A stretch of 64,000 bases of DNA from Clostridia bacterium (GCA_045593405.1 JAZNWN010000001.1:22926-86925), one strand, 5' to 3'; numbered from the stretch's first letter, positions 13,254 to 64,000 are shown. The notes: generated from the letters alone by a model not told the origin. Numbers and translations: made by a program.

Positions 13254-14038
13254 GAAAAGTATTAAAATATGATTTAAAATGGGTATATAAAGTTGTTGGA
13301 GTTTTTTATATTTTAGCATTTATTTTTTCTATTATAGGTAGAGGATTAAATGAAATTGAAAACTCAGCTTTATTTTCTTTAATAGCAAAAATAGCATTTG
13401 GATTTGCAATAAGTATGATGGTAAGTAGTTTAATAAATTGTTTAATGAGATTATGGGCAAGGTTTATTAAAAATATGTATAAAGATGAATCATATCTTAC
13501 ACATACAATTCCAGTGCCAAGAAAAACAATATATGTGTCAAAAGTGCTTGCAGCATTAATAACTATTTTTACAACTACAATTGTTGCTCTTGTATGTTTA
13601 TATATATGTTATTATTCAGAAGCAAATATGGAAATTTTAAAAACATTACTTGAACTTGCCGCTTCTACTTATAACACAACAGTAGTAAAATTGTTGTTAT
13701 TAATTACAGTAGTAATATATTTAGAAGTAATGTTTATGGTATTAATAGGTTATACAGGAATAATATTAGGATATAAATCAAACCAAAATAAAATGGTAAA
13801 AACATTAGTATATTCATTTATATTATATATGGTAACACAAGTAGTTACCTTAGTAGTAATTTATATTTTTGGATTATTTAATCCAAGTGTAATGAATATA
13901 ATTAATACAACAGATATCGTAAATATAGATGCAATTAAAAATGTTATGTATGTTGGTATTGCAACTTATGTTGCTTATATAATTTTCTATTATCTTTTAG
14001 GAAAAAAACAACTTGAAAAAGGTGTTAATGTAGATTAG
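13247..14038 (+). CDS. ABC-2 type permease / integral membrane protein
   Basis: Six predicted TM helices. Translationally coupled to the upstream ATPase. Confidence 0.7.
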   Translation: MLGKVLKYDLKWVYKVVGVFYILAFIFSIIGRGLNEIENSALFSLIAKIAFGFAISMMVSSLINCLMRLWARFIKNMYKDESYLTHTIPVPRKTIYVSKVLAALITIFTTTIVALVCLYICYYSEANMEILKTLLELAASTYNTTVVKLLLLITVVIYLEVMFMVLIGYTGIILGYKSNQNKMVKTLVYSFILYMVTQVVTLVVIYIFGLFNPSVMNIINTTDIVNIDAIKNVMYVGIATYVAYIIFYYLLGKKQLEKGVNVD

Positions 14039-22444: not shown

Positions 22445-24532
22445 ATGAAAATAAAAAGGATTTTATTATTAATGTCAATATTTTTATTTGTATTAGCTTT
22501 AGCTATTATACCAAATAAAGTATTAGCAACAGAAATGAGTGAAGAGTTTAAGAACATTTTAAATGATGAAGGCGAACTAGTTGTAACAGATACCACTATG
22601 TATGAAGACAAAGTTATGTTTTTATGGGAGTACTTACTAAATTATGGTACGAGTGATTATAGCTTTGCTGTAAACTATTATAATGAAGAAGATGATACTT
22701 GTAGCATTTCAATAACTCATACTGATGAAACACATACAGTACCAGTTGTATATGAAGAGAAATATAGTGATGAATTTAAAACTATATTAAAAGATGGAAA
22801 AATAGAATTACCAACTTCTAGTAAAAATTTTTCAGCAGAGTGGATAGAAACTTATTTACAAAGATTAGGTGATGAAAATTATTTTTTTGAAATCGCTAGT
22901 TATTATGATTATGAAAAAGGTGACTATATTAAACTTATAAATGAAGATAATACTAAAGCAACTGTAGTAATGAGAGAAAATGGAGGAAGTAAGTCTGAAC
23001 GACATATAATTGAGTTTGTAAAAGTAACAGAACAAAGTGAAAATTATAAAAAATACTTGAATGAAGATGGTAAATTAGTAGTAAATGGTATTAAACCATC
23101 AAATGAAATGGAGTTTGTTGTTTTATTTGAATTATTAATCTGGAAAGAAGATCTTGATATGGGATGGGGATATATAGCAGAAGATTTTTCGTCTTGTGAT
23201 TTTACAGTTAATAATGAAACACATACAGTTGAAATTGTATATAACTATGATAGTTCAGTAAAGAGCAAATTACAAAGTTTAATAAATAATTTCCCAGAAG
23301 ATATAGAATACTTTACAGTTCAAGATATGGAATTAATAAATTATTGGGTAAATACAATAGATAATGATGATGTAAACACTTTAGCTGGATATTCTGGAGA
23401 ATTAAAATCATATATAAATAATTATAATGTAAAATTAATTGTTGACACTCGTGCTGGATGGGATACAGCTTTTATGACAGCTAGAGCTGGTATGTCATTA
23501 ATTACTCATAATGATATTGCTTATTATGCTAGTCATTGGTTAGGTGCGCAAGGAAAACATATAATTTATGTACCTAATGAAACAGGAGATTCTAAAGATG
23601 AGCTTATAGCAGCTGCTCAAAAAAGAATAAATGAATATTTAGGAGATGAAAATATAGTAACAGTATCTTATGCTGGAAAAGCTGATAGGGTTCATGCACA
23701 GTTTGAGTATGAATATTATAGAGACTGGTGGGAAATAGAAAATCCTAATATGACTCTTGATGAGTTTATAGCAGAAAATTATCCAGAAGGAATTGACCTT
23801 AGTGAGCCTATGACAGGTATTGAAAATCTTAATGCTAATGATGATGTATTTAAAGTAACTGTAAAAGTAGGAGATATAGAAAGAAGTTTTAATATTTTTA
23901 TTAAAAAAGATAGTTCAAAAATGATTTTACCTACATATGCTACAGCTGATATGAAAACAAATGTTGAAATAAGTACAGAATCTTCTTCAATTCCATTAGA
24001 CACACAAGTTCAAGCTAATAAATTGACAAGTGGAACAGAATATGAAAGAATTGTAAATATACTAGAAGTAGAAGATAATGCTACTTATGATTTAAAATTA
24101 TATTCTAATTCATTAAAAGAATTTGTTACAAAACTTGAAGATGGAACATTTGAAGTAAAAATACCAATACCAGAGGAATTAGAAGGCAAAACATTAATTG
24201 TATATTATGTTGATGAAAATGATAATGTAACAGAACATGAAGTAACTGTTAAAGATGGATTTGCATCATTCGAAACAGACCACTTTAGTACTTATGTGTT
24301 AGCAGAAAAAGTGGAAGAAGATAATAATACAGATGACACTGATTCTGGAAATGCAAATACTGGAAATCCAACTGGTAGTGGAAGTAGTAGCGAAGAAACA
24401 AATAATAACCATACAGCTACAGGAAAAAACCCACAAACTGGAGATAATATAATATTATTTGTAGCAGTTTTAGTAATTGCAGTAGTAGGTATTCTTACAA
24501 CAACAATACTAAAAAAACATAAAAACAAATAG
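22445..24532 (+). CDS. cell-wall anchored surface protein with NPQTG sorting signal (sortase B-type substrate)
   Basis: Signal peptide MKIKRILLLMSIFLFVLALA. C-terminal NPQTG, hydrophobic segment and KKHKNK tail. Internal repeats of about 120 aa containing ETHTV-x-VYEE/VYNYD. Ser/Thr/Gly/Asn-rich stalk. Confidence 0.8.
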   Translation: MKIKRILLLMSIFLFVLALAIIPNKVLATEMSEEFKNILNDEGELVVTDTTMYEDKVMFLWEYLLNYGTSDYSFAVNYYNEEDDTCSISITHTDETHTVPVVYEEKYSDEFKTILKDGKIELPTSSKNFSAEWIETYLQRLGDENYFFEIASYYDYEKGDYIKLINEDNTKATVVMRENGGSKSERHIIEFVKVTEQSENYKKYLNEDGKLVVNGIKPSNEMEFVVLFELLIWKEDLDMGWGYIAEDFSSCDFTVNNETHTVEIVYNYDSSVKSKLQSLINNFPEDIEYFTVQDMELINYWVNTIDNDDVNTLAGYSGELKSYINNYNVKLIVDTRAGWDTAFMTARAGMSLITHNDIAYYASHWLGAQGKHIIYVPNETGDSKDELIAAAQKRINEYLGDENIVTVSYAGKADRVHAQFEYEYYRDWWEIENPNMTLDEFIAENYPEGIDLSEPMTGIENLNANDDVFKVTVKVGDIERSFNIFIKKDSSKMILPTYATADMKTNVEISTESSSIPLDTQVQANKLTSGTEYERIVNILEVEDNATYDLKLYSNSLKEFVTKLEDGTFEVKIPIPEELEGKTLIVYYVDENDNVTEHEVTVKDGFASFETDHFSTYVLAEKVEEDNNTDDTDSGNANTGNPTGSGSSSEETNNNHTATGKNPQTGDNIILFVAVLVIAVVGILTTTILKKHKNK

Positions 24533-41720: not shown

Positions 41721-41912
41721 ATGGAATATAAAATAGGAGATATTGTAGAATTTAAAAAACCACATCCATGTGGAAATAAACAATGGGAAATAACAAGAAT
41801 AGGTGTAGATTTTAAATTTAAATGCAAAGGTTGTGGCCATAATATTGTACTCGAAAGACAACAAGCCTTAAAAAGAATAATTAAAAAGGTGAATGCTAAT
41901 GAAAAAAAGTAA
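41721..41912 (+). CDS. DUF951 family protein
   Basis: 63 aa with KKPHPCGNKQW and CKGCGH motifs, as in small DUF951/YyzM-like proteins. Confidence 0.75.
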   Translation: MEYKIGDIVEFKKPHPCGNKQWEITRIGVDFKFKCKGCGHNIVLERQQALKRIIKKVNANEKK

Positions 41913-43216
41913 TATTCCTTCATGGATATTTATGATTATTATGTTATTTATAATATATTTTTTATTTGGTATTTATAAATCACATTATTTTAATGGATTT
42001 ATAAAAGCTGAATCAACAATTGGAATTTCTGAATTTAAAAGAGATGCAAATATTAAATATTTAGATTATGACACTTATAGAATAGTGTCACCTGAACAAA
42101 ATGATGCAGCCTTTTATAAAGAAATAGAGGTAGAACCTAATACTCCATATAGAGTAACTTGTATGATAAAAACAGAAAATGTTATACCATCTGCAATTAA
42201 TACTGATGGAGGTGCTTGTATTTCTATAATAGAGTCATCAGAAATTTCAAAGAGTATTACTGGTACAACTGATTGGCAGAAAGTAGAGTTGATGTTCAAT
42301 TCTAAAAATAGAACAAGTTTAAAAATAGGTTTTAGATTGGGAGGAAATTCAGGAACTGCTGAGGGTACTGCATGGTTTTCAGATTTTAAATTAGAAAAAG
42401 GTTTAAAAGTAAAAGATTCAAATTGGAAAGTTGCATGCTTTATTTTTGAAAATACAGATGTAGAAATTAATGGTAAAAGAGTGAATTTTTCGATGTCTTT
42501 ATCAGAAATTGAAACCGTAAAAAGTGATATGGCAAGGTTTGAATCTACATGTGAAACTATGAGTAATGAAAAACTACAGGTTGATTATGATGTTTACAAT
42601 ATAGAAGAACCGCTTAGAACTATTTCTTATTCAGAAGAGCATAAGTATTATTTTGACCCATACGATGTAAATAATATGATTGAGGATATTGTTTTAGAAA
42701 ATGACTATGATTATATATTTGCAGTAGTAAAGATGGGTGATAGTGAAAAAGAAATACCAGTAGCTAATTGGGTTGGACTTCGGAAGTATGGATTTGTATG
42801 GTATAGGGTTTTCAAATATTAGAATATCTAATGATGATAGTAACTATATTTATAAATATGACTATAGAATAAATGTTTTTCCAGAAGAGGTATTTATACA
42901 TGAGTTTTTACATACTTTAGAAAGAACGTCACAAGAATATGGATTTGATGTACCAAATTTACATAGTTATTCAAATTATGGATATGAAGAAGGAGGCATA
43001 AATGGTCTTAAAAATTGGTACCAAGCTTATTTGAGTTCTGAAATATTAGATAAATCAACACATGAATATATAGGAATAAATGAGAAAGTATTTATTTTAA
43101 AACCAACTCATAAAAATAATTTTAAATTTACAATAGAAATAGATTTTAGTAAAGAACCTAGTAATATAATAGAAGAAATAAAAAGCTTATTTAACGTGAT
43201 AGCAGATGTAATATAA
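41899..43216 (+). pseudogene. membrane-anchored HExxH zinc-metallopeptidase-like protein split by a +1 frameshift at a GGGTTTT run
   Basis: ORF 41893-42822 (N-terminal TM then beta-rich domain) and ORF 42773-43216 (HEFLHTLE motif) overlap by 50 nt in adjacent frames. Removing one T near 42807-42810 fuses them (..GFVWYRVSNIRISNDD..). Confidence 0.6.
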
Positions 43217-45581: not shown

Positions 45582-46784
45582 ATGGATTTATTACAAGATA
45601 ATAAAAATAAAAAGAAAAAAACACCAGCACAAAAACTTGTTTTAGCATTATTAATTATTTTAATAGTATTATGTGTTATTATTGGAGGAGTAATTGCTTA
45701 TCTATCTATTGAGGGGGGACAAAAGCCCTATTCAATTACTATAAATGGAAATGTAATTGATTTTAATAACATACAAATTATTGTTAATGAATATGGTCAA
45801 AAGTACATTTCATTAAAATCAATATGTAGTATTCTAGAGTATAATTATTATAATGGTGAATTTAAAATTGCAGAAGAAGATAAAACTAAAGGTTATATAG
45901 ATAATGGAATTAATATAATACAATTTTTTGCAAATTCTAAAAGAATATATAAAACAAATGAAAAATCTAATTTAGATTATGAATATTATAATTTAGAAAA
46001 TAAAATAATAGTATCTGCAGAAAATCTATATATAGCTTTAGATGATTTAGATATAGCTTTAAATTTAATTGTAACTTATTCTGAGGCTAATAATCAAACA
46101 GTAATAGAGTCTCCAGAATATTGGATTTCACAGAAAAAAGAGGATTTTAGTAAGAATAATTTTATTATTAGTAATACACCAGAAAATCTTAAAACTTTAT
46201 CTTATGGATTTATTGTAATAAGTAAGGATAATAAATATGGAGTTCTAAATTTATATGGAGAAGAAATAATAGGGAACAAATATAATACGATTACCTTTTC
46301 TGAATATACGGGAGATTTTATTGTATCAAATACAAATAATAAATTTGGAATTATAACAAATAATGGCTTGGCAAAAGTTAATTTACAATACGATAATATT
46401 GAGATTTTAAATTTTGATCCTTTGTTATACAAAGTAAAAAGATTAGAAAAGTATGGAATAATGAAACATGATGGAAGTATTATAAATGATATAGAATATG
46501 ACTCTATTGGATATCCTGAAAATAAAGCAAAAGAAATAAATTATACTGTAATTATACCTAACTTAAATGAGAATATTCCAGAATCTATAGTAATATGTAT
46601 TGACAATAAATATGGATTGTTAAATTTAGAAACTGGTAACGAACTGATTCCATGTACTTTAGATGGTATTTATTCTGCAACAGAAGATGGAAAAAACTAT
46701 TATATTGTAGAAACACAGAATAATAAAATGTTTTTGGAAAATTATATTGATAATTTAAATAAAGTAACAGTTACTATAGACTAG
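45582..46784 (+). CDS. membrane-anchored WG-repeat (KWG-like) protein
   Basis: N-terminal TM. Repeated K(Y/W)G(V/I/L)(L/M)N modules (KYGVLNLYGEE, KFGIITNNG, KYGIMKHDG, KYGLLNLETG). Confidence 0.65.
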   Translation: MDLLQDNKNKKKKTPAQKLVLALLIILIVLCVIIGGVIAYLSIEGGQKPYSITINGNVIDFNNIQIIVNEYGQKYISLKSICSILEYNYYNGEFKIAEEDKTKGYIDNGINIIQFFANSKRIYKTNEKSNLDYEYYNLENKIIVSAENLYIALDDLDIALNLIVTYSEANNQTVIESPEYWISQKKEDFSKNNFIISNTPENLKTLSYGFIVISKDNKYGVLNLYGEEIIGNKYNTITFSEYTGDFIVSNTNNKFGIITNNGLAKVNLQYDNIEILNFDPLLYKVKRLEKYGIMKHDGSIINDIEYDSIGYPENKAKEINYTVIIPNLNENIPESIVICIDNKYGLLNLETGNELIPCTLDGIYSATEDGKNYYIVETQNNKMFLENYIDNLNKVTVTID

Positions 46785-52797: not shown

Positions 52798-53679
52798 ATG
52801 AAAAAACAAATTGAACTTTTCTTAGATTTTATAAAAAATGAAAAAAAATTATCAGATAATACTTTTCAATCTTATAAAAGAGATATTTTACAATTTCAAG
52901 ATTATATCAATATAAATAATATAAATTATGATGATATAAATGAAGGAAATGTTAAAGATTATTTAGCTTATTTAAGTGATTTAAATAAAAAAGCAACAAC
53001 AATTTCTAGACATTTAGCATCAATTAGATTATTTTATCAATATTTGTTAAAATTTCATAAAGTACAAGCGGATCCTACTGCAAATGTACAGGCTCCAAAA
53101 ATAGATAAAAAAGCTCCTAGCATATTAACTTCTGAAGAAGTTACACTTCTTTTAAATCAACCAAAAAATGTTGATTTAAAAGGAATTAGAGATAAGGCAA
53201 TGTTAGAATTTGCATATGCAACAGGTATGCGTGTTACTGAAATAATATCTTTAAATATTGAAGATGTAAATTTAGAAGAAGGAGTTGTAAATTGTAAAGC
53301 AAGAACAAAAACAAGAGCAATTCCATTAGGCAAGATATCATTAAATGCACTTAAAGAATATGTAGCGAATGCAAGAGATATATTAATAAAAGACGATAAT
53401 GAGAAAGCTTTATTTGTTAATATAAATGGAAAAAGATTAACTAGACAAGGAGTATGGAAAATAATAAAATTCTATAAAGAACAGGCTAACATAACAAAAG
53501 AAATAACACCACATGTTTTAAGACACTCATTTGCAACACATTTATTACAAAATGGTGCAGACCTAAAATCTATTCAAACAATGCTTGGGCATTCAGATAT
53601 ATCTTCAACTCAAGTATATATGCAATTTCAGGATGAAAGTTTAAAGAATATATATAGAAAGGCACATCCAAGAGCATAA
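52798..53679 (+). CDS. xerD: site-specific tyrosine recombinase XerD
   Basis: Catalytic motifs RDKAMLEFAYATGMRVTE, HVLRHSFATHLL and LGHSDISSTQVY. Confidence 0.9.
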   Translation: MKKQIELFLDFIKNEKKLSDNTFQSYKRDILQFQDYININNINYDDINEGNVKDYLAYLSDLNKKATTISRHLASIRLFYQYLLKFHKVQADPTANVQAPKIDKKAPSILTSEEVTLLLNQPKNVDLKGIRDKAMLEFAYATGMRVTEIISLNIEDVNLEEGVVNCKARTKTRAIPLGKISLNALKEYVANARDILIKDDNEKALFVNINGKRLTRQGVWKIIKFYKEQANITKEITPHVLRHSFATHLLQNGADLKSIQTMLGHSDISSTQVYMQFQDESLKNIYRKAHPRA

Positions 53680-53781: not shown

Positions 53782-53822
53782 GTATTTACAACAAATAAAT
53801 GTTCGCACAAAGGAGGCTAATT

Positions 53823-54119
53823 ATGAAAATAAAAAATATAAAAAAATTTATTAGAAGTATATTCTTAATATCAGGAATTATATTTATATTATCTTTAATA
53901 ATGGTTAAATCAACTTTATCATATACTGATACTGAATATAAATTAATATATGTAAATTCAGGAGATACTTTATGGAGTATAGCAAGTGATTTACAGGAAA
54001 ATAATTTATATTATGAAGGAAAAGATATTAGATATATAATAGGCGACTTAAAAGAAGTTAATAAATTAAATGATAGTACAGTATATGTTAATCAAGAATT
54101 ACAAATTCCAATTATATGA
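53823..54119 (+). CDS. LysM domain-containing small membrane-anchored protein
   Basis: N-terminal TM and C-terminal LysM (YVNSGDTLWSIASDL...VNQELQIP). Start at ATG 53823 after an AAGGAGG RBS. Confidence 0.8.
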   Translation: MKIKNIKKFIRSIFLISGIIFILSLIMVKSTLSYTDTEYKLIYVNSGDTLWSIASDLQENNLYYEGKDIRYIIGDLKEVNKLNDSTVYVNQELQIPII

Positions 54120-54181
54120 TGTTTGTATAGTAGATAATAATATTAAAAAATAGGGGGTTAGATAAATTTAACCCTCTATTT

Positions 54182-55144
54182 TTATAAATTAGCTAATGGA
54201 TTACTTTCTACAGCATTTCTTACTTGAACATTATCTACATGAGTATAAATTTCGGTTGTAGAAATACTTTCGTGTCCCAATAATTCTTGCAGAGCTCTTA
54301 TATCAACATTACCATATTGATACATTAATGTTGCTGCAGTATGTCTTAGTTTATGGACTGAATATTTGTTTATATCTAAACCAGCTTTAAGTAATTCTTT
54401 TCTTATAATACTTTGAACTGTTCTATTACTAATTCGCTCTTTACGTTCACTTAAAAATAAGGCATCTTTAGAATCATATTTTATAGAGACTTTAGGTCTA
54501 CATTCTAAATAATCATTAATTGCATTTATACAAGCTTTATTTAAGTAAATTGTTCGTTCTTTATTTCCTTTACCAATAACATTAAGTTTACATTCTGAAA
54601 AATTGATATTACTGATATTAATACCTACAAGTTCAGACAAACGCATGCCACAATTTAAAAATAAAGTTGTTATTGCAAAATCTCTTTTATTATTTCTATT
54701 ATTCTCATCTTGAGAAACATCTAAAAGTTTTTTACTTTCATCTAAGCTTAGGTATTTAGGAATACGTTTTCCTAGCTTTGGTGTTTCTAAATATTGCGCA
54801 GGATTATTTTCAATCAGTTTTGCTTTCTTTGCTAGATATGTAAAAAATACTTTAATACTAGATACTTTTCGAGCCCTAGTAGTTGGTTTACTATTTAATG
54901 TAGTTGCCATATATGCAATGTAACTGTGAATGTCTTCTAAGGAAATTTTTTTAATTTCATTAATAGTCATATTTGAAATATCAATATCCTTAAAATCGGA
55001 TTTATTATTACTTTTAATAAACTTTAAAAAGTTGGCAATATCATAATTATATTCTTTTACAGTATTAGGTGATTTATTTAAAATAGTTATGTTATAATCT
55101 AGAAATGAATTTAAAAAATCTGGATTATTATTTCTACTAATCAT
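54182..55144 (-). CDS. tyrosine-type recombinase/integrase (XerC-like)
   Basis: C-terminal HKLRHTAATLMYQ and LGHESISTTEIYTHV. Start at the ATG giving MISRNNNPDFL. Convergent with xerD across the LysM gene. Confidence 0.85.
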   Translation of the reverse strand: MISRNNNPDFLNSFLDYNITILNKSPNTVKEYNYDIANFLKFIKSNNKSDFKDIDISNMTINEIKKISLEDIHSYIAYMATTLNSKPTTRARKVSSIKVFFTYLAKKAKLIENNPAQYLETPKLGKRIPKYLSLDESKKLLDVSQDENNRNNKRDFAITTLFLNCGMRLSELVGINISNINFSECKLNVIGKGNKERTIYLNKACINAINDYLECRPKVSIKYDSKDALFLSERKERISNRTVQSIIRKELLKAGLDINKYSVHKLRHTAATLMYQYGNVDIRALQELLGHESISTTEIYTHVDNVQVRNAVESNPLANL

Positions 55145-55260
55145 AGAATCACAACCTCTCATTTTCATTTTTAAATTTATAATAATTATATAACAAAACT
55201 ATTGCAAAAGTCATCTAATTTAGTGTAAAATATTAGAAATTTAAAAAGGAGGATAAAAAA

Positions 55261-56772
55261 GTGTCTAAAATATTAGAAAATGTATCTAGAACATTTAATG
55301 AATTTCTTTTATTACCAAATTTGACAGATGAAAGATGTATACCATCAAATGTTAGCTTAAAAACTCCATTGGTAAAATTTAAAAAAGGTGAACAATCAAA
55401 ATTTAATGCAAACATCCCTTTCGTATCAGCCATAATGCAATCTGTATCAGGAGAAAAAATGGCGATAGCTCTTGCGCGAGAAGGTGGATGTTCTTTTATT
55501 TATGGAGCTCAAACAATAGAAAATCAAGCGCAAATGATTAAAAATGTAAAAAAATATAAGGCAGGTTTTATTACAAGTGATTCTAATGTAACAAGAAAAA
55601 CGACAATTCAGGAGTTAATTGAATTAATAGAAATAACTGGCCATTCAACAGTTATGGTGACTGAGGATGGATCTCCAAATGGCAGATTTTTAGGACTTGT
55701 AACAGATAAAGATTATAGATTATCTAGAGTAGATATTAATTCACTGGTAGAAGAATATATGGTACCAAAAGAAAAAATTGTATTTGCTAGAAAAGGAATT
55801 ACATTAAGTGAAGCAAATGATATAATCTGGGATAATAAAATAAGTTGTTTACCAATTTTAGATAAAAATGATTGTTTAGATAGTTTAGTATTTAGAAAAG
55901 ATTATGAATCAGATAAAGAAAATCCAAATTCTTTGTTAGATGAAAATAAAAGATTTATAGTAGGAGCTGGCATAAATACAAGAGATTATGCAGAAAGAAT
56001 ACCAGCATTAGTAGAAGTTGGTGTTGATATGCTTTGTATTGATTCGTCAGATGGATATTCTATATGGCAAAAAAATACAATTGATTGGGTAAGAGAACAC
56101 TATGGAGATACAGTAAAAATAGGAGCAGGAAATGTTGTAGATAAAGAAGGTTTTTATTATTTAGCCGATGCAGGTGCGGACTTTATTAAAGTTGGTGTTG
56201 GAGGAGGCTCTATTTGCATAACTCGTGAGACAAAGGGAATTGGACGTGGACAAGCAAGTGCCTTAATGGATGTAGTAGAAGCAAGAAATGAATATTATGA
56301 AAGAACTGGTATATATATTCCTGTGTGTTCAGATGGCGGAATTGTACATGACTATCATATTACTTTAGCACTAGCTATGGGAGCAGATTTTGTAATGATG
56401 GGAAGATATTTTGCTAGATTTGATGAAAGCCCAACAAGAAAATTAAAAATTAATGGTAGCTTTGTAAAAGAATATTGGGGAGAAGGCTCAAATAGAGCAA
56501 GAAATTGGCAAAGATATGATTTAGGTGGAGCTGCTAAAAATAAATTAACATTTGAAGAAGGTGTTGATTCTTATATACCATATGCAGGTCCATTAAAAGA
56601 TAATGTCGACATAACAGTTAATAAGATTAAATCTACAATGTGTAACTGTGGAGCAATCACAATACCAGAATTACATAAAAAAGCAAGATTAACAATGGTG
56701 TCAGCTGTAAGCATCAAAGAAGGCGGGGCACATGATGTAATTTTAAAACAGGTTGAAACAGGCAGAGAATAA
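55261..56772 (+). CDS. guaB: IMP dehydrogenase family protein (divergent, with CBS pair)
   Basis: GTG start after an AAGGAGGA RBS. Catalytic loop [16 protein letters not shown], flap RY dyad and a tandem CBS insert. N-terminal region diverges from typical GuaB ([16 protein letters not shown]). Confidence 0.8.
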
Positions 56773-56793
56773 TAAATAAATGGAGGAAAAGAA

Positions 56794-57774
56794 ATGAAGG
56801 ATAATATACGTCCGGAAACAATGAATAGAATAAATACAAATGAATCAGCAGAATTATTTATTGAAGAACAAATAAATATAATTCGTAAACAGGTTGGAGA
56901 TAAAAAGGTTTTATTAGCACTTTCGGGAGGTGTTGATTCATCAGTTGTTGCTGCATTATTAATAAAGGCTATTGGAAAACAACTTGTGTGTGTACATGTT
57001 AATCATGGACTTTTAAGAAAAGGTGAACCAGAGCAAGTTGTTGAGGTTTTTAAAAATCAACTGGGTGCAAATTTAATTTATGTTGATGCAGTTGATCGAT
57101 TTTTAGATAAACTTGCAGGAATAGCAGATTCAGAGCAAAAGCGTAAAATAATAGGTGCTGAATTTATAAGAGTATTTGAAGAAGAAGCAAGAAAATTAGA
57201 TGGAATAGAATTTCTTGCACAAGGTACAATCTACCCAGACATATTAGAAAGTCATGGTGTAAAAGCGCATCATAATGTAGGTGGATTGCCAGAAGATTTA
57301 CAGTTTTCTCTTATAGAACCAATAAAATTATTGTTTAAAGATGAAGTAAGAATTGTTGGAAAAGCTTTAGGATTACCAGATTGTATGGTATATCGTCAAC
57401 CATTCCCAGGTCCAGGACTTGGAGTTAGATGTCTTGGTGCAATTACAAGAGAAAGATTAGAAGCTGTACGTGAATCTGATGCAATTCTTAGAGAAGAATT
57501 TGCAAAAAACGGATTAGAAGGAAGGGTTTGGCAATATTTTACAGCTGTACCAGATTTTAAATCAGTAGGAGTTTTAAACAATCAAAGAACCTTCGCATAT
57601 CCAGTAATAATAAGAGCAGTAGATACAGTTGACGCTATGACAGCAACAGTTCATAATATCCCTTTTCAACTGTTGCAGCATATAACAAACAGAATTACTT
57701 CTGAAATTCCCAATGTAAATAGAGTATTATATGATTTGACTCCAAAACCAACAGGAACTATTGAGTGGGAATAG
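56794..57774 (+). CDS. guaA: GMP synthase ATP-pyrophosphatase subunit (GuaA C-terminal domains only, no glutamine amidotransferase domain)
   Basis: PP-loop [12 protein letters not shown] and C-terminal dimerisation domain ending KPTGTIEWE. Its own GGAGGA RBS. The protein begins at the inter-domain linker of canonical GuaA. Confidence 0.8.
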
Positions 57775-57807
57775 AAATACAAAAAAAATAATAAGATTTA
57801 AAAATAC

Positions 57808-57845
57808 AACCCTCAGTTTCAGTTGCAACTGAGGGTTATATTTAT
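57808..57845. terminator. bidirectional terminator
   Basis: AACCCTCAGTT-TCAGTTGCA-ACTGAGGGTT followed by ATATTTATTTTTT. Confidence 0.8.
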
Positions 57846-57848
57846 TTT

Positions 57849-57974
57849 TTATGATAATAGGAACATTAGCATAAAAAATAGTGCTATTAGGAAGGATAGT
57901 CCTACCATTGCGAGAAATTCGGGCAGTTTTTTTGTAAAGAAAATCTTTACGAGTTGTTTTCTTGTATAGAACAT
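57849..57974 (-). CDS. small hydrophobic peptide (41 aa)
   Basis: AGGAGA RBS. Encodes MFYTRKQLVKIFFTKKLPEFLAMVGLSFLIALFFMLMFLLS. Not in ORF track. Confidence 0.35.
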   Translation of the reverse strand: MFYTRKQLVKIFFTKKLPEFLAMVGLSFLIALFFMLMFLLS

Positions 57975-58146
57975 TTTATTTCTCCTTTATAATTATTCTT
58001 GCGAGAATTATAATAATATTATATCATATTTTATTAAAATAATCAAATTTATTAGAAACGTATATTTAAAGCTTGAAATTTGACAATAAAATTATTTAAT
58101 AGTATAATTATAATATAAAATTAAAGCAAGAAATGAGGTAATTGTT

Positions 58147-58692
58147 ATGGATTTAAAAAATGAAGCAACTGCTAAATATACAAAATATAGTACGACAATT
58201 GATATAATATTTGATACCCAGTTAGGTGATGCTTATGATATGAGATATGAATTAAAAGATGTTTTAACTGCATATAAACATTTGCAAGAAAAAATTGAAA
58301 AAGACAAGGAATTAACTCAAGAATATAAAGATGAATTAAAGAAAAGAATAGAAGAAAAAACTGAGAAAGCAAAAAACAGAGAAGAAGAAATAAAAAAGGC
58401 AGAGGAAAAATATTCACAACAACAATATATTACGTTAATAAATGCAAAAGAAAATTATAGAAGAAATATGAGATTAAGAATGGATCCATCTTCTTCAAAA
58501 TTACGTACAATGATAGAACATAAAGGATATTATATTTTTTTCAACGAGGAACAAATTGAAGCAATTTACGAAGGTCGTATAAATCAAGTGGATTTTGAAG
58601 AAATGGGTAAAGAATATCCTGTTATTTTTAAAGAATTGGAAGAAGCAATAAATAAAGCAAAAAATGTTGGGCAAAGAGAAGAACAAGAATAA
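58147..58692 (+). CDS. hypothetical Lys/Glu-rich coiled-coil protein
   Basis: First of three tightly linked genes of unknown function. GAGGT RBS. Confidence 0.6.
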   Translation: MDLKNEATAKYTKYSTTIDIIFDTQLGDAYDMRYELKDVLTAYKHLQEKIEKDKELTQEYKDELKKRIEEKTEKAKNREEEIKKAEEKYSQQQYITLINAKENYRRNMRLRMDPSSSKLRTMIEHKGYYIFFNEEQIEAIYEGRINQVDFEEMGKEYPVIFKELEEAINKAKNVGQREEQE

Positions 58693-58716
58693 TATAAATT
58701 ATTTTATGGAAGGAAG

Positions 58717-59388
58717 GTGTATATTATGGAATCGACATTACAAAAAATACAAGCACATCATCATTTAAAATCATTTGAAGAAACAGTTATTGAATTATAT
58801 AGTAAAGTAGAAGTAGTGAAATTTGAACAATCAGAGTTTATAAGTACATATAAACAGTATTCTTACTTAAAGCAAGAATATAATAAGGCAATAGATAAAT
58901 CAAGTACACCAATATATAAAATTGATTCTAAAGAAGAAAAGAAAGAAAAAAAGAAGCAAAGAAAAGAAGGAAAAAAATCTGCAAAAGATTTGCTAAAAGA
59001 ACTTAAATCAATAGAGCAAATCTTAAATCCTATGATGTCACAATTTGATTTAGCGGAACTAGGTGGAATTGAAGGAGTTAAATTAATATTACAAAACGCA
59101 GAAGGGTACGACAGAGAAAAAGCTAAAGAACTTGAAGGTTTGCGAAGAAGAGTTGAATTTCATGAAGAACATCCTGAAATAAATATAGTTGGATTTCCTG
59201 ATAAAGATAAAGAGATATTAGAAACTACTACTACAGGAATTGATAAAGTTGAAAGAGAATATCTAACAAATGTACTTAATAAAGCTTTAACAGAAACGTC
59301 AGCAGATAATGCTAATAAGGCTCAGGGCATAGAACAGTTAGGATTAAATCCAGAACATATTAACGAAGGAGAAACAAAAGATGATTAG
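58717..59388 (+). CDS. hypothetical acidic protein with KEKKKQRKEGKK stretch
   Basis: Start at either ATG 58717 or ATG 58726. No family recognised. Confidence 0.55.
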   Translation: MYIMESTLQKIQAHHHLKSFEETVIELYSKVEVVKFEQSEFISTYKQYSYLKQEYNKAIDKSSTPIYKIDSKEEKKEKKKQRKEGKKSAKDLLKELKSIEQILNPMMSQFDLAELGGIEGVKLILQNAEGYDREKAKELEGLRRRVEFHEEHPEINIVGFPDKDKEILETTTTGIDKVEREYLTNVLNKALTETSADNANKAQGIEQLGLNPEHINEGETKDD

Positions 59389-59845
59389 TAAAGCTTATGC
59401 AAGGGCTTATACAGAAGTATTAGAAATAATTAAATATTTTCCAGAAGAAGAATATGCTAAAATACCTACAGAAAAAATTGAGTTTTATAAAAAAAATATG
59501 GACAAAGATTATATTTTTACAATTAATCCAGAAATTGACTTATCAAAGCAAAATATTTCTTTAGAAGCAAATGCTATCATAGTTAATTTATTTAGAGATT
59601 ATTTAGCAACTGAAGAACAAAAAATAATAATAAAAGAAATATTAGATTTAAATCAAAAAAAAGTAGAACAAGAAAAAAGAGAAATATATAATCCAGATAA
59701 TATATTTAAAAAGGTAAATAAAAACGCAGAAAGAACTCATATTGAAATACCTGATAATACTAATACAACTACACTAGTTGAATATAAAGTATCATTTTTT
59801 ACAAAGCTTAAAGAGTTTATATTCAAAATATTACATATAAATTAA
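59381..59845 (+). CDS. hypothetical protein
   Basis: ATGATTAG overlap with the upstream stop (translational coupling). Followed by a terminator at 59861-59890. Confidence 0.55.
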   Translation: MISKAYARAYTEVLEIIKYFPEEEYAKIPTEKIEFYKKNMDKDYIFTINPEIDLSKQNISLEANAIIVNLFRDYLATEEQKIIIKEILDLNQKKVEQEKREIYNPDNIFKKVNKNAERTHIEIPDNTNTTTLVEYKVSFFTKLKEFIFKILHIN

Positions 59846-59860
59846 ACAAATAGTTTATTG

Positions 59861-59890
59861 GAGCTAAGAAATTAGCTCTTTTTTGATTAT
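59861..59890 (+). terminator. rho-independent terminator
   Basis: GAGCTAA-GAAA-TTAGCTC followed by TTTTTTG. Confidence 0.8.
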
Positions 59891-60117
59891 TGCTGAAAAT
59901 CAAGCAGAGTAGGAGAGAGGAGCAGTTTTGAAGAATTAAAGATTTTTTTAAAATAATAAATATAATTTCAAAACTAAACTAATTATACAAAAATCAAAAA
60001 TAAAATCATAAAGATAAAATATAAAATTAATATAAAAGTTTTTATTAAATTAAAATTTTTAAATTTTGTGCAAAGTTTTAAATTTATAAAAATTTTCAAA
60101 ATAAAATATTTTAATTA

Positions 60118-60160
60118 TTGAACGCGTTAAAATCGTTTTTAAGACATTTTAATATTAAAG
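60118..60160. repeat. iteron-like repeat copy 1 (ACGCGTTAAAATCGTTTTTAAGACATTTTA)
   Basis: Shares the core GAATCG-TTTTAAG-NN-ATTTTA with copies 2 and 3. Lies in a 1-kb ORF-free AT-rich region. Confidence 0.7.
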
Positions 60161-60282
60161 TCAACAAGTTAATCGTTTATAAATTGCAGCTAAAAATAAC
60201 AATTATATATAATATTAGTAAAAACTTGTAAAAATGCTGATTTTTATAGACATTCAAAAAAACACAAAAAAGTGCCTAAAAA

Positions 60283-60325
60283 ACGACGCACGAGAATCGA
60301 TTTTAAGCCATTTTAAAAAAAGAGG
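60283..60325. repeat. iteron-like repeat copy 2 (ACGACGCACGAGAATCGATTTTAAGCCATTTTA)
   Basis: Direct repeat of copy 1. Confidence 0.7.
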
Positions 60326-60476
60326 CATATAGTTACTTACCTTGATTTTTGGCTAATTATTGACATATAAGGGTTTGATAGATTTTTAAGAAAATTTTAT
60401 AGATAATAATATAAATTGTAATTAAAAATTTTTGAAATTTAAAATTTATATAAAGATTATAAAATTAGTTAAAATC

Positions 60477-60520
60477 ATGACGCATCAGAATCCGTTTTAA
60501 GCGATTTTATTTAAAAAGTA
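60477..60520. repeat. iteron-like repeat copy 3 (ATGACGCATCAGAATCCGTTTTAAGCGATTTTA)
   Basis: Direct repeat of copies 1 and 2. Confidence 0.7.
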
Positions 60521-60866
60521 ATAAAGTTACATTAATAAGAATATAAGGCTAAACACTTGAAAGTGCTAAAAATAGCGAGATAGAGGTTCTTTTGAAGAAA
60601 AGCATATTTTGTCCTATACTCTTTTGCGCAAAACCTTGATAATAATAACCCCCCTTATAAATAACCTATTCCATTATGCACAAAACTTACCTAATAATAA
60701 CCCACTCTCAGTAAAAATATTCAAAATTTACTTCCCTAATTAAAATATTAATTCTCAATTTTCCATTTATAATTTAAAAGATATAGTTATTGAAATAATA
60801 TCTAGCATAAAAATTAATTGTAATAATAATCTTAATTATTTTTCATATCTCCAAGAGGAGGTAAAT

Positions 60867-61667
60867 ATGAAAAGTACAAAAATTATTGCGATTGCAAATC
60901 AAAAGGGTGGAGTTGGTAAAACAACAACTACACTCTCTATTGGAGTAGCCCTTGCAAAAGAGGGCAAAAAAGTATTGTTGATAGATGCAGATCCACAAGG
61001 AAATTTAACAACTTCTTTAGGATACTATCAACAAGAAGATATGCCAATAACATTGGCAGACTTAATGTATGCAGAAATTATGGATAAGGAAATAAAAATA
61101 CATGAAGCCATTTTGCATCATGAAGAAAAAATCGACCTTATTCCATCTGATATAAGTCTTTCTGCTATAGAATTATCATTAGGAAATGCTATGAGCAGAG
61201 AGTTTATATTAAGAAATTGTTTAAACAAGATAAAAGATGAGTATGATTATATTTTAATTGATTGTATGCCATCTTTAGGATTAATTCCTATAAATTGTTT
61301 AGCTTGTAGCAATGAAATAATTATTCCAGTTCAAAGTCAGTATTTAGCAATGAGAGGAATGACATATTTATTTGAAACTGTTTCAAAAGTTAAAAGGACA
61401 ATAAATCCAGATTTAAGAATTAAAGGGATTTTATTGACTTTAGTAGATAGAAGAGCAAATCTTTCAAAGAATGTCAGACAAGAATTGGAAAATAATTATG
61501 GTAAATATGTAAAAATATATGAAACTGAAATACCTTTAGCTATAAAAACTGCTGAAGCATCTATTAAAGGAAAAAGCATTTTCGAATATGATAAAAAAGG
61601 AACTGTTGCAAACGCTTATGAGAATTTAGTGGAGGAGGTTTTAGAAGATGAAAAACAAAGCATTTAA
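60867..61667 (+). CDS. ParA/Soj family partition ATPase (small type)
   Basis: Deviant Walker A KGGVGKTTTT, 266 aa. AGGAGG RBS. Confidence 0.9.
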   Translation: MKSTKIIAIANQKGGVGKTTTTLSIGVALAKEGKKVLLIDADPQGNLTTSLGYYQQEDMPITLADLMYAEIMDKEIKIHEAILHHEEKIDLIPSDISLSAIELSLGNAMSREFILRNCLNKIKDEYDYILIDCMPSLGLIPINCLACSNEIIIPVQSQYLAMRGMTYLFETVSKVKRTINPDLRIKGILLTLVDRRANLSKNVRQELENNYGKYVKIYETEIPLAIKTAEASIKGKSIFEYDKKGTVANAYENLVEEVLEDEKQSI

Positions 61668-62598
61668 GATGAACTTGCCTACATTAGATAGTTTATTTAC
61701 AACACAAGAAGAAAGAGACAATCCTAAAATATTACAAGTAACTGAACTTCCAATAAATATAATAAAAGATTTTCCGAATCATCCATTTAAAGTTGTAGAT
61801 GATGAATACATGGACGATATGGTCGAAAGCGTTAAAGTTAGTGGAGTAATAATGCCTGTAATAGTAAGAAAAGAAGTTGATGGCAGTTATTGTATGATAT
61901 CTGGACATAGAAGAAAACACGCAGCAACTAGAGCAGGATTAGAAAAAATCCCTAGTATAGTTATGAAATTAACAGATGATGAAGCGACACTTTTGATGGT
62001 AGATACAAATATAAATCAAAGGTTAAGTTTACTTGCATCAGAGAGAGCCTTTGCTTATAAAATGAAACTAGATGCAATAAAACATCAAGGAAAGAAAGTA
62101 GAAGAAACTTATCGCCCACTGGTCGAGAAGTTAGAAAAAATACTTTCAGCAGATCTTGTTGGCCAAGAGGTTGGTGCAAGTGCTAGAACTATTCAAAGAT
62201 ATGTAAGATTAACAGAGTTAATTCCTGAACTCTTGGAATTGGCTGATAAAGAAAAAGATGGAATGGCATTAAGACCAGCAGTTGAAATTTCTTATATTAG
62301 CAAAGAAAATCAAAAGTTAATATACGACAGTTTTAAATATAATGAAGCAACAGCTACTTTAAGTCAGGCTCAATTGTTAAGGAAATTAGATGAATCTAAC
62401 GAATTGACAATTGAAAAAATTGAAGAAATAATGCAACAGGAAAAACCAAATCAAAAAGAGCAGTTTAAAACTTCTTATGATAAAATTAGACACTATTTTC
62501 CTAAAAATTATTCAAATGAACAAATAGATAATAAAATTATGGAATTGTTAGAAATTTTTTATCAAGATTGGAAGCGAAAAGCAGCAAAAGTAAACTAA
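61648..62598 (+). CDS. ParB-like partition protein (ParB/Srx N-terminal domain)
   Basis: ISGHRRKHAATRAGL (GxRR box) and an HTH region. Overlaps the parA stop. Confidence 0.8.
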   Translation: MKNKAFKMNLPTLDSLFTTQEERDNPKILQVTELPINIIKDFPNHPFKVVDDEYMDDMVESVKVSGVIMPVIVRKEVDGSYCMISGHRRKHAATRAGLEKIPSIVMKLTDDEATLLMVDTNINQRLSLLASERAFAYKMKLDAIKHQGKKVEETYRPLVEKLEKILSADLVGQEVGASARTIQRYVRLTELIPELLELADKEKDGMALRPAVEISYISKENQKLIYDSFKYNEATATLSQAQLLRKLDESNELTIEKIEEIMQQEKPNQKEQFKTSYDKIRHYFPKNYSNEQIDNKIMELLEIFYQDWKRKAAKVN

Positions 62599-62699
62599 TT
62601 TATACATAATAGTCAAGTGTATAAATTATCAAAAATTTGTATATTTACACATTAATAAGCCCTTAGTGGCTTATTTTTTATGGAGGTGATTTATTATAT

Positions 62700-63440
62700 G
62701 TGAATGAAGAAAATAAACTAGGATATTATGCAATAATACCTTCTACTGTATTATTTAACAAAGATTTAAAAGCAAATGAAAAGCTTTTATATGCTGTTAT
62801 AACGGTATTAGCAAATAAAGAAGGATACTGTTATGCATCAAATAATTATTTAGCTGATTTATTTAATTCTAAACCACATACAATATCTAATTGGATATCA
62901 CATCTTAATAAATTAAATTTTGTATATGTAGAATTAGTAAGAAACAATAAAAATGAAATAATACAAAGAAGAATTTATATAAATGACATACCCTATGTTA
63001 CAAAAATAACATACCCCTATTCTATGAAAATGACAGAGGGCATGTCGCAAAAACGACAAGATAATAATATAAATAAAAAGATAGATAGATTTTTTATTTA
63101 TATTATAAAAAAAGAAAAGGAAAATCCTGAAAAAATGACAAAAGATGAAGATATAGGTTTTAAGGATTTGCTAGAAAAGTACGAGTTGAATTATACAGAA
63201 GAACTTATAAATATCTTTGCTGAAGAAAATATAGAGAAATTAAAAATTATAATCTATGCTTTAAAAGATATTTATATTAGCACAAGAAGAAGCCTTATTA
63301 CAAAGTTGACAAGAGATGAATTGATATTCATTTATGATAAATGTAGAACTAAAGAAAGTGAATATAGAAATACAACAAATGAAATCAATAATTTTTATGA
63401 ATATTATTACACAAGTTTGATTAAAAAGTTAGAAAGCTAA
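62700..63440 (+). CDS. HTH domain replication-initiator-like protein (plasmid/phage Rep N-terminal domain type)
   Basis: N-terminal winged-helix pattern YYAIIPSTVLFNKDLKANEKLLYAVITVLANKEGYCYASNNYLADLF typical of Firmicute plasmid/phage Rep or DnaD-like initiators. GTG start after a GGAGGTGA RBS. Confidence 0.5.
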   Translation: MNEENKLGYYAIIPSTVLFNKDLKANEKLLYAVITVLANKEGYCYASNNYLADLFNSKPHTISNWISHLNKLNFVYVELVRNNKNEIIQRRIYINDIPYVTKITYPYSMKMTEGMSQKRQDNNINKKIDRFFIYIIKKEKENPEKMTKDEDIGFKDLLEKYELNYTEELINIFAEENIEKLKIIIYALKDIYISTRRSLITKLTRDELIFIYDKCRTKESEYRNTTNEINNFYEYYYTSLIKKLES

Positions 63441-63476
63441 ATGTTTTTATTTTTTTATTCAAAGGACAGGAGGAAT

Positions 63477-63635
63477 ATGATACCGACTTATGATATAGAA
63501 AACTTAACAGGAGGACTAGATAGTGTATTTCAAAATGTTATGAGAATAGGTTTTACAGCTACTATAGTTCTTTTAACAATATGGATGTTATTAAGTCTAT
63601 TAATATGGTTATTTCGGAGCCAGGAAGAAATCTGA
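63477..63635 (+). CDS. small membrane protein (52 aa)
   Basis: GGAGGAAT RBS. Single TM (TATIVLLTIWMLLSLLIWLF). Confidence 0.45.
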   Translation: MIPTYDIENLTGGLDSVFQNVMRIGFTATIVLLTIWMLLSLLIWLFRSQEEI

Positions 63636-63796
63636 AAAAGCAATAAAGTTTGGGATAAGTAATTCAATAATAACTTTAATATTAATTATTATTATATTAG
63701 CAGTTCCAATACTGCTTAATATGTTTTAATTGAGATAAAGAAAAGTGTTCATACCATAACCAAAAACAATAAAAAAATCAAGGAGGGTTATGAGAT

Positions 63797-64000
63797 ATGC
63801 AAAAAAATAATTTAAAGAATATATTTTATAAAATAAAAAATAAAATTTGGATATTACCAACTACTTTAATGTTAATGCCAGCTAAAGTTTTTGCTGCAGG
63901 TGGAAGTATTAGTACAGCAGAGGTCAACCAAGCTACAGAAAATGTTAAAAATGCAATTATAAAACTTGCAATGCCAATAGGTGGAATATTAGTGTTTGTA
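63797..64000 (+). CDS. TrbC/VirB2-like conjugative pilin-like protein, 3-prime truncated at window edge
   Basis: Signal peptide ending AKVFAAGG, then a hydrophobic segment. AAGGAGGG RBS. Confidence 0.4.
   Translation, partial: MQKNNLKNIFYKIKNKIWILPTTLMLMPAKVFAAGGSISTAEVNQATENVKNAIIKLAMPIGGILVFV

Follow-up and report, generated by a model that had tools for sequence, protein, structure and literature searches.

A predicted guaB–guaA operon with a GATase-less GMP synthase in a Clostridia chromosome, and its relatives among gut and rumen bacteria

Two adjacent genes at positions 55,261–57,774 of a 64,000-nucleotide stretch of a Clostridia bacterium genome (GCA_045593405.1 JAZNWN010000001.1:22926-86925; hereafter the window, to whose positions the coordinates refer) encode GuaB, an inosine monophosphate (IMP) dehydrogenase, and a short form of GuaA, the guanosine monophosphate (GMP) synthase, that lacks the glutamine amidotransferase (GATase) domain. 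We consider it probable that this pair is a resident chromosomal operon whose products carry out the final two reactions toward GMP, with ammonia as the nitrogen donor. In the proposed pathway, GuaB would oxidize IMP to xanthosine monophosphate (XMP), and short GuaA would adenylate XMP with ATP at its PP-loop site and aminate the resulting adenyl-XMP intermediate to GMP. The nitrogen would come from free ammonia, since no glutaminase domain is fused or linked to the synthetase.

Enzymes encoded by the guaB–guaA pair

The short guaA gene starts 21 nt past the double stop codon of guaB, with a GGAGG sequence 7 nt upstream of its ATG, and encodes a protein of 326 amino acids (aa). The protein covers the whole of the TIGR00884 model (guaA_Cterm; 444 bits, cut-off 338.75) and matches PF00958 (GMP_synt_C) with 124.5 bits (cut-off 27), the C-terminal dimerization domain included; the two-domain model NF000848 (PRK00074) is matched at positions 190–512 only (457 bits). 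Retained are the PP-loop SGGVDSS, the YPD aspartate, the lid motif K-x-HH-N, the blocks KDEVR and FPGPGLGVR, and the C-terminal TIEWE. The first-pass annotation, which had read this gene as a 326-aa product with a ribosome-binding site and with the ATP-pyrophosphatase (ATPPase) and dimerization domains only, is thus borne out by the full coverage of TIGR00884 and the partial coverage of NF000848. Assignment of the protein to the step from XMP to GMP is based on homology with intact catalytic motifs and on the operon structure.

No class I GATase with a Cys-His-Glu triad was found on the short GuaA polypeptide, which has no match to PF00117, and the 21 nt between the guaB stop and short guaA leave no room for such a domain. 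Pfam scans of the substantive open reading frames (ORFs) and a tblastn search with a GuaA GATase probe likewise found no class I GATase in the 64-kb window, in agreement with the earlier remark that no partner GATase is adjacent. The probe, the GATase domain of E. coli GuaA, recovered the native enzymes of other loci. In the examined flanks (up to 10 kb on each side) of those loci that lack a native guaA, again no GATase was found.

Compared with the canonical two-domain GuaA (E. coli; PDB 1gpm), the synthetase half is homologous and has the same catalytic motifs, whereas the class I GATase half is absent, the lid loop is eight residues shorter than in the bacterial two-domain enzymes, and the clade to which the window protein belongs is far more conserved. 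Subunit B of the archaeal GMP synthases (Pyrococcus horikoshii, PDB 2dpl/3a4i; Methanocaldococcus jannaschii, PDB 6jp9) is likewise a stand-alone protein, of about 310–326 aa, composed of a PP-loop ATPPase and a C-terminal dimerization domain. Short GuaA aligns end to end with 2dpl and 6jp9 (E=1e-99 over the full length), and the short lid loop before K-x-HHNVGGLP is common to both. Unlike the archaeal subunit, short GuaA is bacterial, is ~53% identical to it, has the clostridial two-domain GuaA as its sister in a tree, and carries a conserved N-terminal extension of ~20 residues.

GuaB has 503 aa, a GTG start, and an AGGAGG ribosome-binding site. It matches the Pfam IMP dehydrogenase (IMPDH) family with E=1e-109 and the NCBIfam equivalog NF005493 (PRK07107) with 900 bits (cut-off 585), residues 1–499 of 503 being covered. 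Its best solved relative is the IMPDH of Tritrichomonas foetus (PDB 1ak5; E=1e-225, 66% identity over 493 residues), with which the Cys loop (GSICIT type) and the mobile-flap R-Y dyad (NWQRYDLGG) align residue for residue. The Bateman region with its CBS pair (residues about 100–220) also aligns continuously with 1ak5, the Pfam CBS match being weak (E=1.5e-7). All catalytic hallmarks that had been noted for this gene, i.e., the Cys loop, the dyad, and the CBS pair, were therefore recovered in place. The divergent N-terminal barrel described for it is a matter of the reference chosen: the description holds against canonical bacterial GuaB, and identity to the canonical GuaB of other genomes with short guaA is just 31–35%, but it does not hold within its own clade, as identity to 1ak5 is still 65% over the first 104 aligned residues. 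The window protein is of the same length (503 aa) as the T. foetus enzyme, the NF005493 clade, and Lmo0132 of Listeria (PDB 8ebc), and it resembles T. foetus IMPDH in the N-terminal barrel strand, the Bateman domain, the Cys loop, and the R-Y dyad, with nothing notably different. It is an ordinary bacterial representative of the Tritrichomonas-type IMPDH clade and is predicted to catalyze the NAD-dependent oxidation of IMP to XMP.

The two genes share a reading frame, and the gap between them consists of TAA TAA and 18 nt; each has its own ribosome-binding site, and guaA is followed by a terminator. At gathering thresholds no Rfam family was found in the window, and none was found in 55100–60900 even at E≤1, so that no purine or guanine riboswitch precedes either gene. 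The guaA gene of Clostridioides difficile has been described as riboswitch-controlled in work cited by a review (PMC9312489).

Distribution and descent of short GuaA

Hundreds of clusters of 326–330-aa proteins in a large protein database are 84–89% identical to the window GuaA. In public databases, hundreds of these 326-aa proteins are labeled "glutamine-hydrolyzing GMP synthase" and yet are themselves unable to hydrolyze glutamine. A scan with one genome per species found short GuaA at 75–86% identity in Ruminococcus, Oscillospiraceae, Acutalibacteraceae, and other Clostridia, and at the same level in Sutterella, Duodenibacillus, other Burkholderiales, Desulfovibrio, and metagenome-assembled genomes (MAGs) of Planctomycetes and Bacteroidaceae. 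The clade spans at least five phyla. It is set apart by an identity gap (70–83% for the clade, at most 63% for the next relatives) in an exhaustive representative search, whose matches were mostly fragments and chimeric gene calls.

Within the clade, identity is 73–100% (median 81%), whereas the native GuaA synthetase domains of the same loci (comparison loci are denoted by L and a number) are 49–100% identical among themselves (median 57%). Clade members are 46–60% identical to these native domains and about 53% (median) to subunit B of P. horikoshii, which is as close (53%) to short GuaA as to the native bacterial domains. The eight-residue deletion in the lid loop and an N-terminal peptide, N[VI]RPE[ST]M.RI, are common to all members. 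In a neighbor-joining tree on p-distances, a rough test, the clade is monophyletic and sister to the clostridial two-domain GuaA, and it encloses the copies from proteobacteria, planctomycetes, Bacteroidaceae, and Desulfovibrio. A shared origin with archaeal subunit B came out negative by both identity and tree; the "archaeal-style" split seen in the initial reading of the operon is an analogy only.

The GC content at third codon positions (GC3) of short guaA ranges from 0.07 to 0.94 and tracks that of the host and of native guaA in every locus; it is 0.12 for the window copy. Since GC3 matches the host everywhere, the inter-phylum transfers would be old, and a recent transfer of short guaA is rejected. 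Taken together, the sequences indicate that GuaA2, as we name this type, is a distinct and extremely conserved clade of GATase-defective GuaA paralogs that arose within the clostridial two-domain GuaA and spread long ago into other gut phyla.

Of the 88 guaA-anchored loci, 27 have a full-length native guaA upstream of the short one, at a distance of less than 200 bp in 18 of these 27 and of 0.6–4.5 kb in the rest, and the native enzymes in such tandems keep the GATase triad. The tandem order is observed in every Sutterella/Aphodousia locus with a captured upstream flank (8/9) and in Desulfovibrio. The order in Sutterellaceae is guaB, guaA, short guaA; in Duodenibacillus and two MAGs of Burkholderiaceae it is guaB, short guaA, native guaA being missing from that position. 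Altogether, several lineages have short guaA immediately after guaB and no canonical guaA in the examined flank. In the window and in L005–L008, L015, and L099, the gene directly upstream of short guaA is a Tritrichomonas-type guaB; the order in L099 is pgi-guaB-guaA-tal...recA. A mobile cassette consisting of a spacer and short guaA received no support, the spacers between native and short guaA being dissimilar across phyla.

At one locus, short guaA is present in one strain and absent from another. Contigs L001 and L089, which are 97.8% identical over 6.3 kb and belong to the same species, diverge just after (L001 9892–13773; L089 6272–7302): one has short guaA and a WG-repeat gene, and the other has two unrelated small ORFs followed by a conjugative element.

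Proteins of 429–435 aa form a further part of this group. Their ATPPase domain is 74–82% identical to the window GuaA, they have the same tandem placement behind guaA, and they too lack the triad; they differ in the intermediate length of the lid and in keeping a conserved N-terminal piece of ~115 residues that matches positions 1–76 of 190 of the GATase profile and contains no Cys-His-Glu triad, a stub that the window GuaA has lost entirely. Examples are found in L066, in Subdoligranulum, and in Parabacteroides distasonis (WP_022191716.1, in tandem after guaA WP_005854975.1). Because these relatives retain a triad-less stub, the short protein can be regarded as the fully truncated form of a wider GATase-defective group of GuaA. 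Two seemingly longer homologs, P0001 and P0002, were dropped as assemblies with an internal duplication; P0001 is informative only in its N-terminal stub, which was confirmed on the genomic locus L066.

In P. distasonis NZ_OY725764.1 (L100 3054–5933), the second guaA (435 aa) follows a canonical guaA of 506 aa, its product has a synthetase domain 74–75% identical to the window protein and the conserved triad-less stub at the N-terminus, and a gene for a site-specific integrase immediately precedes the pair. Bacteroides finegoldii NZ_OY725961.1 was also matched as a second guaA. Both of these "plasmid" records resemble chromosomal fragments.

Two further observations concern copies that coexist. 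Native GuaA of the Ruminococcus type has an altered lid, K-T-HHN-(K/Q)-V-(K/G/R)-(M/V)-P (L009, L014, L017, L018, L020, L022, L024, L025, L030, L034, L077), e.g., KTHHNKVKMP as against the otherwise invariant K[ST]HHNVGGLP. The GATase triad is intact in both altered-lid enzymes checked (L017, L022), and the altered lid may reflect a division of labor between the paralogs. The MAG RGIG4035 contains short guaA on two contigs (L050 and L052), each 79% identical to that of the window and one of them directly after a canonical-type guaB, which may be due either to duplication or to a mixture of strains within the bin.

According to two reviews (PMC10526850, PMC9312489), bacterial GMP synthetases are two-domain enzymes, and separate units occur only in archaea. 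No description of a GATase-less or second bacterial GMP synthase was found in the literature, of which our coverage is incomplete, and the GATase-less clade appears to be an undescribed variant of a known enzyme. Its pattern, as reconstructed from the sequences, is unusual in combining extreme conservation, tandem location behind guaA, apparent replacement of guaA, and an old spread across phyla. We tentatively propose that GuaA2, comprising the short and the 429–435-aa forms, could be a GATase-independent, ammonia-using GMP synthetase adopted by gut and rumen anaerobes of at least five phyla (among them Clostridia, Bacteroidota, Sutterellaceae, Desulfovibrio, and Planctomycetes). It would have been placed repeatedly behind the resident guaA, possibly via the 3'-end attachment hotspot with its guaA-targeting islands, and would serve as the sole GMP synthase in several lineages, probably including that of the window.

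If true, this would provide a bacterial counter-example to the statement of the reviews that these enzymes are two-domain glutamine amidotransferases. If the enzyme indeed runs on ammonia, guanine nucleotide synthesis would be tied to ammonia and not to glutamine, and the metabolic models for many of the abundant bacteria of gut and rumen would have to be revised. It would further supply a reason for the second guaA beside the first in cultured species such as P. distasonis, and a natural, easily tested case of glutaminase-domain loss in an amidotransferase. The lasting point is the enzyme family, which can be tested directly in cultured gut species.

Nitrogen donor and chromosomal residence

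The most plausible reading of the protein data is that short GuaA uses ammonia. NadE, a PP-loop adenylating amidotransferase, occurs with or without a fused glutaminase, and its domain-less form uses free ammonia; it belongs to another enzyme family and has a nitrilase-type glutaminase, and it would therefore be a precedent for the mechanism only. Rumen and gut are ammonia-rich habitats, and it is from rumen and gut samples that the relatives of the window protein come. Free ammonia would be the simplest donor because the relatives carry dead stubs and not live GATase domains, because native guaA has been lost from the locus in some lineages, and because external ammonia can serve as a substrate for the ATPPase units of GMP synthetases in vitro (PMC10526850).

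Several points weigh against this assignment. The Km for NH4+ of characterized GMP synthetases is high, 26–174 mM (PMC10526850, Table 1), so that an enzyme relying on ammonia only would need either a better affinity or very high ammonia. The 27 of 88 loci in which the short gene is paired with a full-length GuaA that has an intact GATase triad are equally compatible with a short protein that borrows the GATase in trans. Beyond the 64-kb window, the genome may encode a GATase subunit at an unlinked site or a full-length GuaA. Finally, the absence of short guaA from one of the two strains represented by L001 and L089 means that it is dispensable there or duplicated elsewhere.

A two-subunit GMP synthase, in which short GuaA is the synthetase subunit and glutamine is the donor, as in Pyrococcus and Methanocaldococcus, with a GATase that is either encoded separately or supplied by a co-resident full-length GuaA, is in our view rather unlikely, although it accounts for a number of facts. 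The archaeal subunit B (PDB 2dpl, 6jp9) scores nearly as well against short GuaA as the bacterial two-domain enzymes do and has the short lid loop in common with it; the archaeal subunits associate only transiently, so that a partner need not bind tightly (PMC10526850); and the tandem loci would offer such a partner, the altered lid of the native GuaA in Ruminococcus-type tandems being one possible sign of divided labor. On the other hand, no GATase was found either in the window or in the examined flanks (up to 10 kb per side) of the loci that have no native guaA, the native gene with its GATase is gone from its position in some Sutterellaceae where the short gene is kept, the stub retained by the longer relatives is a dead one, and there is no link of descent between the clade and archaeal subunit B. 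Still less probable is a role of short GuaA in vivo other than that of a GMP synthase, be it as a regulatory or scaffolding paralog, e.g., one forming a heterodimer with full-length GuaA, or as a PP-loop enzyme acting on another substrate. The conservation of the clade across phyla, unusually strong compared with the native enzymes, its conserved N-terminal peptide and altered lid loop, and its frequent coexistence with a canonical guaA would fit such a role, which we nevertheless regard as improbable: all of the blocks for XMP adenylation and binding are kept (SGGVDSS, YPD, K-HH-N, KDEVR, FPGPGL, TIEWE), the gene forms an operon with guaB in the window and in L005–L008, L015, and L099, and several lineages have it right after guaB and no full-length guaA in the examined flank. 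Ammonia-dependent GMP synthesis from a resident operon hence remains the reading that we prefer.

The residence of the operon in the chromosome was assessed by comparison with related loci, as the first-pass annotation had raised the possibility that the pair, lying between a tyrosine integrase on one side and a parA/parB/rep module on the other, is carried on a mobile element. Physically, the pair is indeed flanked by a tyrosine recombinase and by these genes, but the recombinase is not the integrase of the element: together with its LysM-domain neighbor it is present at 77–78% amino acid identity in L001, L015, L016, and L019, all of which lack the par/rep module, and its DNA identity of 72–78% is at the level of the backbone. 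DNA identity to the relative L016 is 71–79% for two upstream genes, 76% for xerD, 72% for the LysM gene, 76% for the recombinase, 79% for guaB, and 82% for guaA, so that the operon, diverging from L016 as much as the backbone genes that flank it, is not an outlier; to the closest relatives examined, guaB and guaA show 79–88% DNA identity. An integron-like integrase was considered for the recombinase and rejected, the integron model scoring 100 bits against a cut-off of 265. Orthologous guaB–guaA pairs also occur without mobile genes nearby, e.g., in L099, where amino acid identity to the window is 92% for GuaB, 87% for GuaA, and 66% for Pta. A recent transfer of the pair between the window and L099 is unconvincing, since sequence change in both families is very slow (66% identity even between GuaB and a protist enzyme) and only a single gene served for comparison.

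Carriage of guaB–guaA as horizontally acquired cargo of a mobile element is therefore highly improbable. What speaks for it, apart from the recombinase and the plasmid-like genes on the two sides, is the past crossing of phyla by the short GuaA clade, the variable position of the pair relative to the LysM and recombinase genes among the relatives, and the strain-level presence or absence of short guaA in a related species. Against it stand the retention of the recombinase in relatives without par/rep genes and its backbone-like divergence, identity values for guaB and guaA that equal those of the flanking housekeeping genes, the host-like GC3 of 0.12, and the fact that highly conserved mobile DNA begins only at ~60.66 kb, separated from guaA by the ancestral terminator and ~0.8 kb of non-coding backbone DNA. 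A megablast search of 54000–64000 against plasmid and phage collections found no related element. Thus, guaB–guaA is resident chromosomal DNA, ordinary for its lineage, and the mobile-element reading is contradicted; of the suggested horizontal acquisition, the part that stands, by the tree, is the old spread of the GuaA family across phyla, and not the carriage of this pair on the element. For the window itself, the outcome is mainly a correction: a housekeeping guaB–guaA operon, an "integrase" that is a Xer-like recombinase of the backbone, and plasmid-like genes that are the edge of a separate conjugative element.

DNA around the operon

The occurrence of mobile genes beside a housekeeping operon is explained by the neighborhood downstream of guaA (Table 1), as the DNA just 3' of this gene is an insertion hotspot. 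The octamer GAGTGGGA forms the end of 52 of 87 short guaA genes and has been published as the attachment core of the guaA-targeting island GIsul2 (PMC9376610), and several islands target the 3' end of guaA (PMC9376610, PMC5704250). Integrase or Mob genes are located directly 3' of short guaA in L006–L008, L021, and L066. Compared with the known integrators at the guaA 3' end (GIsul2, ATE-1, and the Brucella IncP island), the window guaA has the GIsul2 core and foreign DNA directly after its stop codon, but, unlike these islands, the 2.08-kb insertion contains no integrase and has no clear flanking repeats, and the conjugative element follows only ~0.8 kb further on.

The insertion is situated exactly between the stop codon of guaA and the ancestral guaA terminator; in the relatives L001, L015, L016, and L019, a hairpin AGAGCTAAGAAATTAGCTC followed by Ts lies directly 3' of the guaA stop. 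Its three larger ORFs have no Pfam or PHROG match, and the 181-aa protein is alone in its 90%-identity cluster. The insertion also contributes, on the opposite strand, a strongly hydrophobic ORF of 41 aa, which could encode either a type I toxin or a small membrane peptide.

Table 1. Coordinates of the features in and around the guaB–guaA operon.
Feature	Position	Strand	Evidence or remark
xerD, core tyrosine recombinase, backbone marker	52798-53679	+	TIGR02225, 344 bits (cut-off 329.6); 75% amino acid identity in L016
Small LysM-domain membrane protein, partner of the 328-aa recombinase	53799-54119	+	Pfam LysM; beside the recombinase in L001, L015, L016
Xer-like tyrosine recombinase, 328 aa	54182-55168	-	Pfam Phage_integrase; XerC 243 and XerD 214 bits, both below cut-offs
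Promoter-like site 5' of guaB, TTGCAA-18-TAAAAT	55202-55231	+	weak consensus match only
guaB, predicted IMP dehydrogenase (IMP to XMP), Tritrichomonas-type/PRK07107 clade	55261-56772	+	NF005493, PDB 1ak5, Cys loop, R-Y dyad
Short guaA (GuaA2 type), ATPPase and dimerization unit without GATase domain, predicted XMP to GMP	56794-57774	+	TIGR00884, NF000848, motifs
GAGTGGGA, 3' end of guaA, E-W-E codons	57763-57770	+	identical to the GIsul2 attachment core
Lineage-specific insertion, 2.08 kb (2,077 bp)	57777-59853	+	relatives L001, L015, L016, L019 align to 57776 and resume at 59854
Terminator of the insertion	57808-57837
41-aa strongly hydrophobic ORF MFYTRKQLVKIFFTKKLPEFLAMVGLSFLIALFFMLMFLLS	57849-57974	-	ribosome-binding site; converges on the guaA terminator hairpin
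Perfect sigma-70 promoter in the insertion, TTGACA-17-TATAAT	58080-58108
Three insertion ORFs, 181/223/154 aa	58147-58692, 58717-59388, 59381-59845
AT-rich non-coding backbone region, ~0.8 kb	59854-60660	.	conserved 3' of guaA in relatives
Ancestral guaA terminator hairpin GGAGCTAAGAAATTAGCTC and T-run, displaced by the insertion	59860-59879	+	relatives and terminator scan
Left end of integrated conjugative element, running off the window	60660-64000	+	93-97% DNA identity to L089-L098
parA	60867-61667		in element
parB	61648-62598		in element
HTH_36 replication-initiator-like gene	62700-63440		in element; PHROG replication-initiator matches
64-aa ORF	within 60660-64000		in element

The AT-rich region between the insertion and the conjugative element contains repeated GACGCA..GAATC..TTTTAAGC motifs and has no Rfam match over 59854–60660. 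It is 70% identical over 885 nt to L019 2266–3142, is duplicated in L001 (11055–11723 and 13774–14406; one copy is 86% identical over 294 nt), and is co-linear in the element-bearing L091, L095, and L097, where identity is only 66–74%. In several hosts, its right end borders directly on the conjugative element.

The par and rep genes were identified as the left end of an integrated conjugative element because they lie in a near-identical block found on differing backbones and are followed there by type IV secretion genes. The block, with 93–97% identity, starts at 60.27–60.78 kb depending on the contig (~60.66 kb, 2.9 kb past guaA) and extends to 64.0 kb; guaB–guaA lies outside it. The ten matching contigs (L089–L098) come from other samples, namely ruminant and gut metagenomes, and the visible backbone genes of L089 and L091 are only 72–77% identical to those of the window. 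In these contigs, the element continues with genes for PrgI-like, VirB4/TraG-like (DUF87/AAA_10), and TrbL-like proteins, an M23 peptidase, a sortase, and a SpaA adhesin, among them a Gram-positive type IV secretion set. Clusters at 90% identity have 94 members for ParA and 71 for the HTH_36 protein, and one for the window GuaA. No repeat pair was noticed around guaB–guaA; the repeat search covered 57500–64000, where, in place of the iterons noted in the first-pass annotation, it found only two imperfect pairs of 36–39-nt direct repeats at 60.3–60.7 kb. The integrase of the element, its right end, and the attachment sites lie beyond the window.

As a whole, the window is chromosomal DNA of low GC content (about 27%) from a spore-forming Clostridia bacterium. 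Its first 57.8 kb carry housekeeping genes, including cysS, proS, gltX, pta, the pyruvate phosphate dikinase gene ppdK, a gene for a class A penicillin-binding protein, mgtE, feoB, maf, tgt, queA, spoIIM, and xerD. Several ORFs of this part have no Pfam match at E≤1e-5, namely, those at 6631–7800 (389 aa), 13247–14038 (263 aa), 22445–24532 (695 aa), 41893–43216 (309 and 147 aa), and 45582–46784 (400 aa).

The location of the LysM–recombinase gene pair varies among the relatives: it precedes guaB in the window, lies between guaB and guaA in L016 and L001, and follows guaA in L015. Either the gene pair is itself mobile or the region rearranges often.

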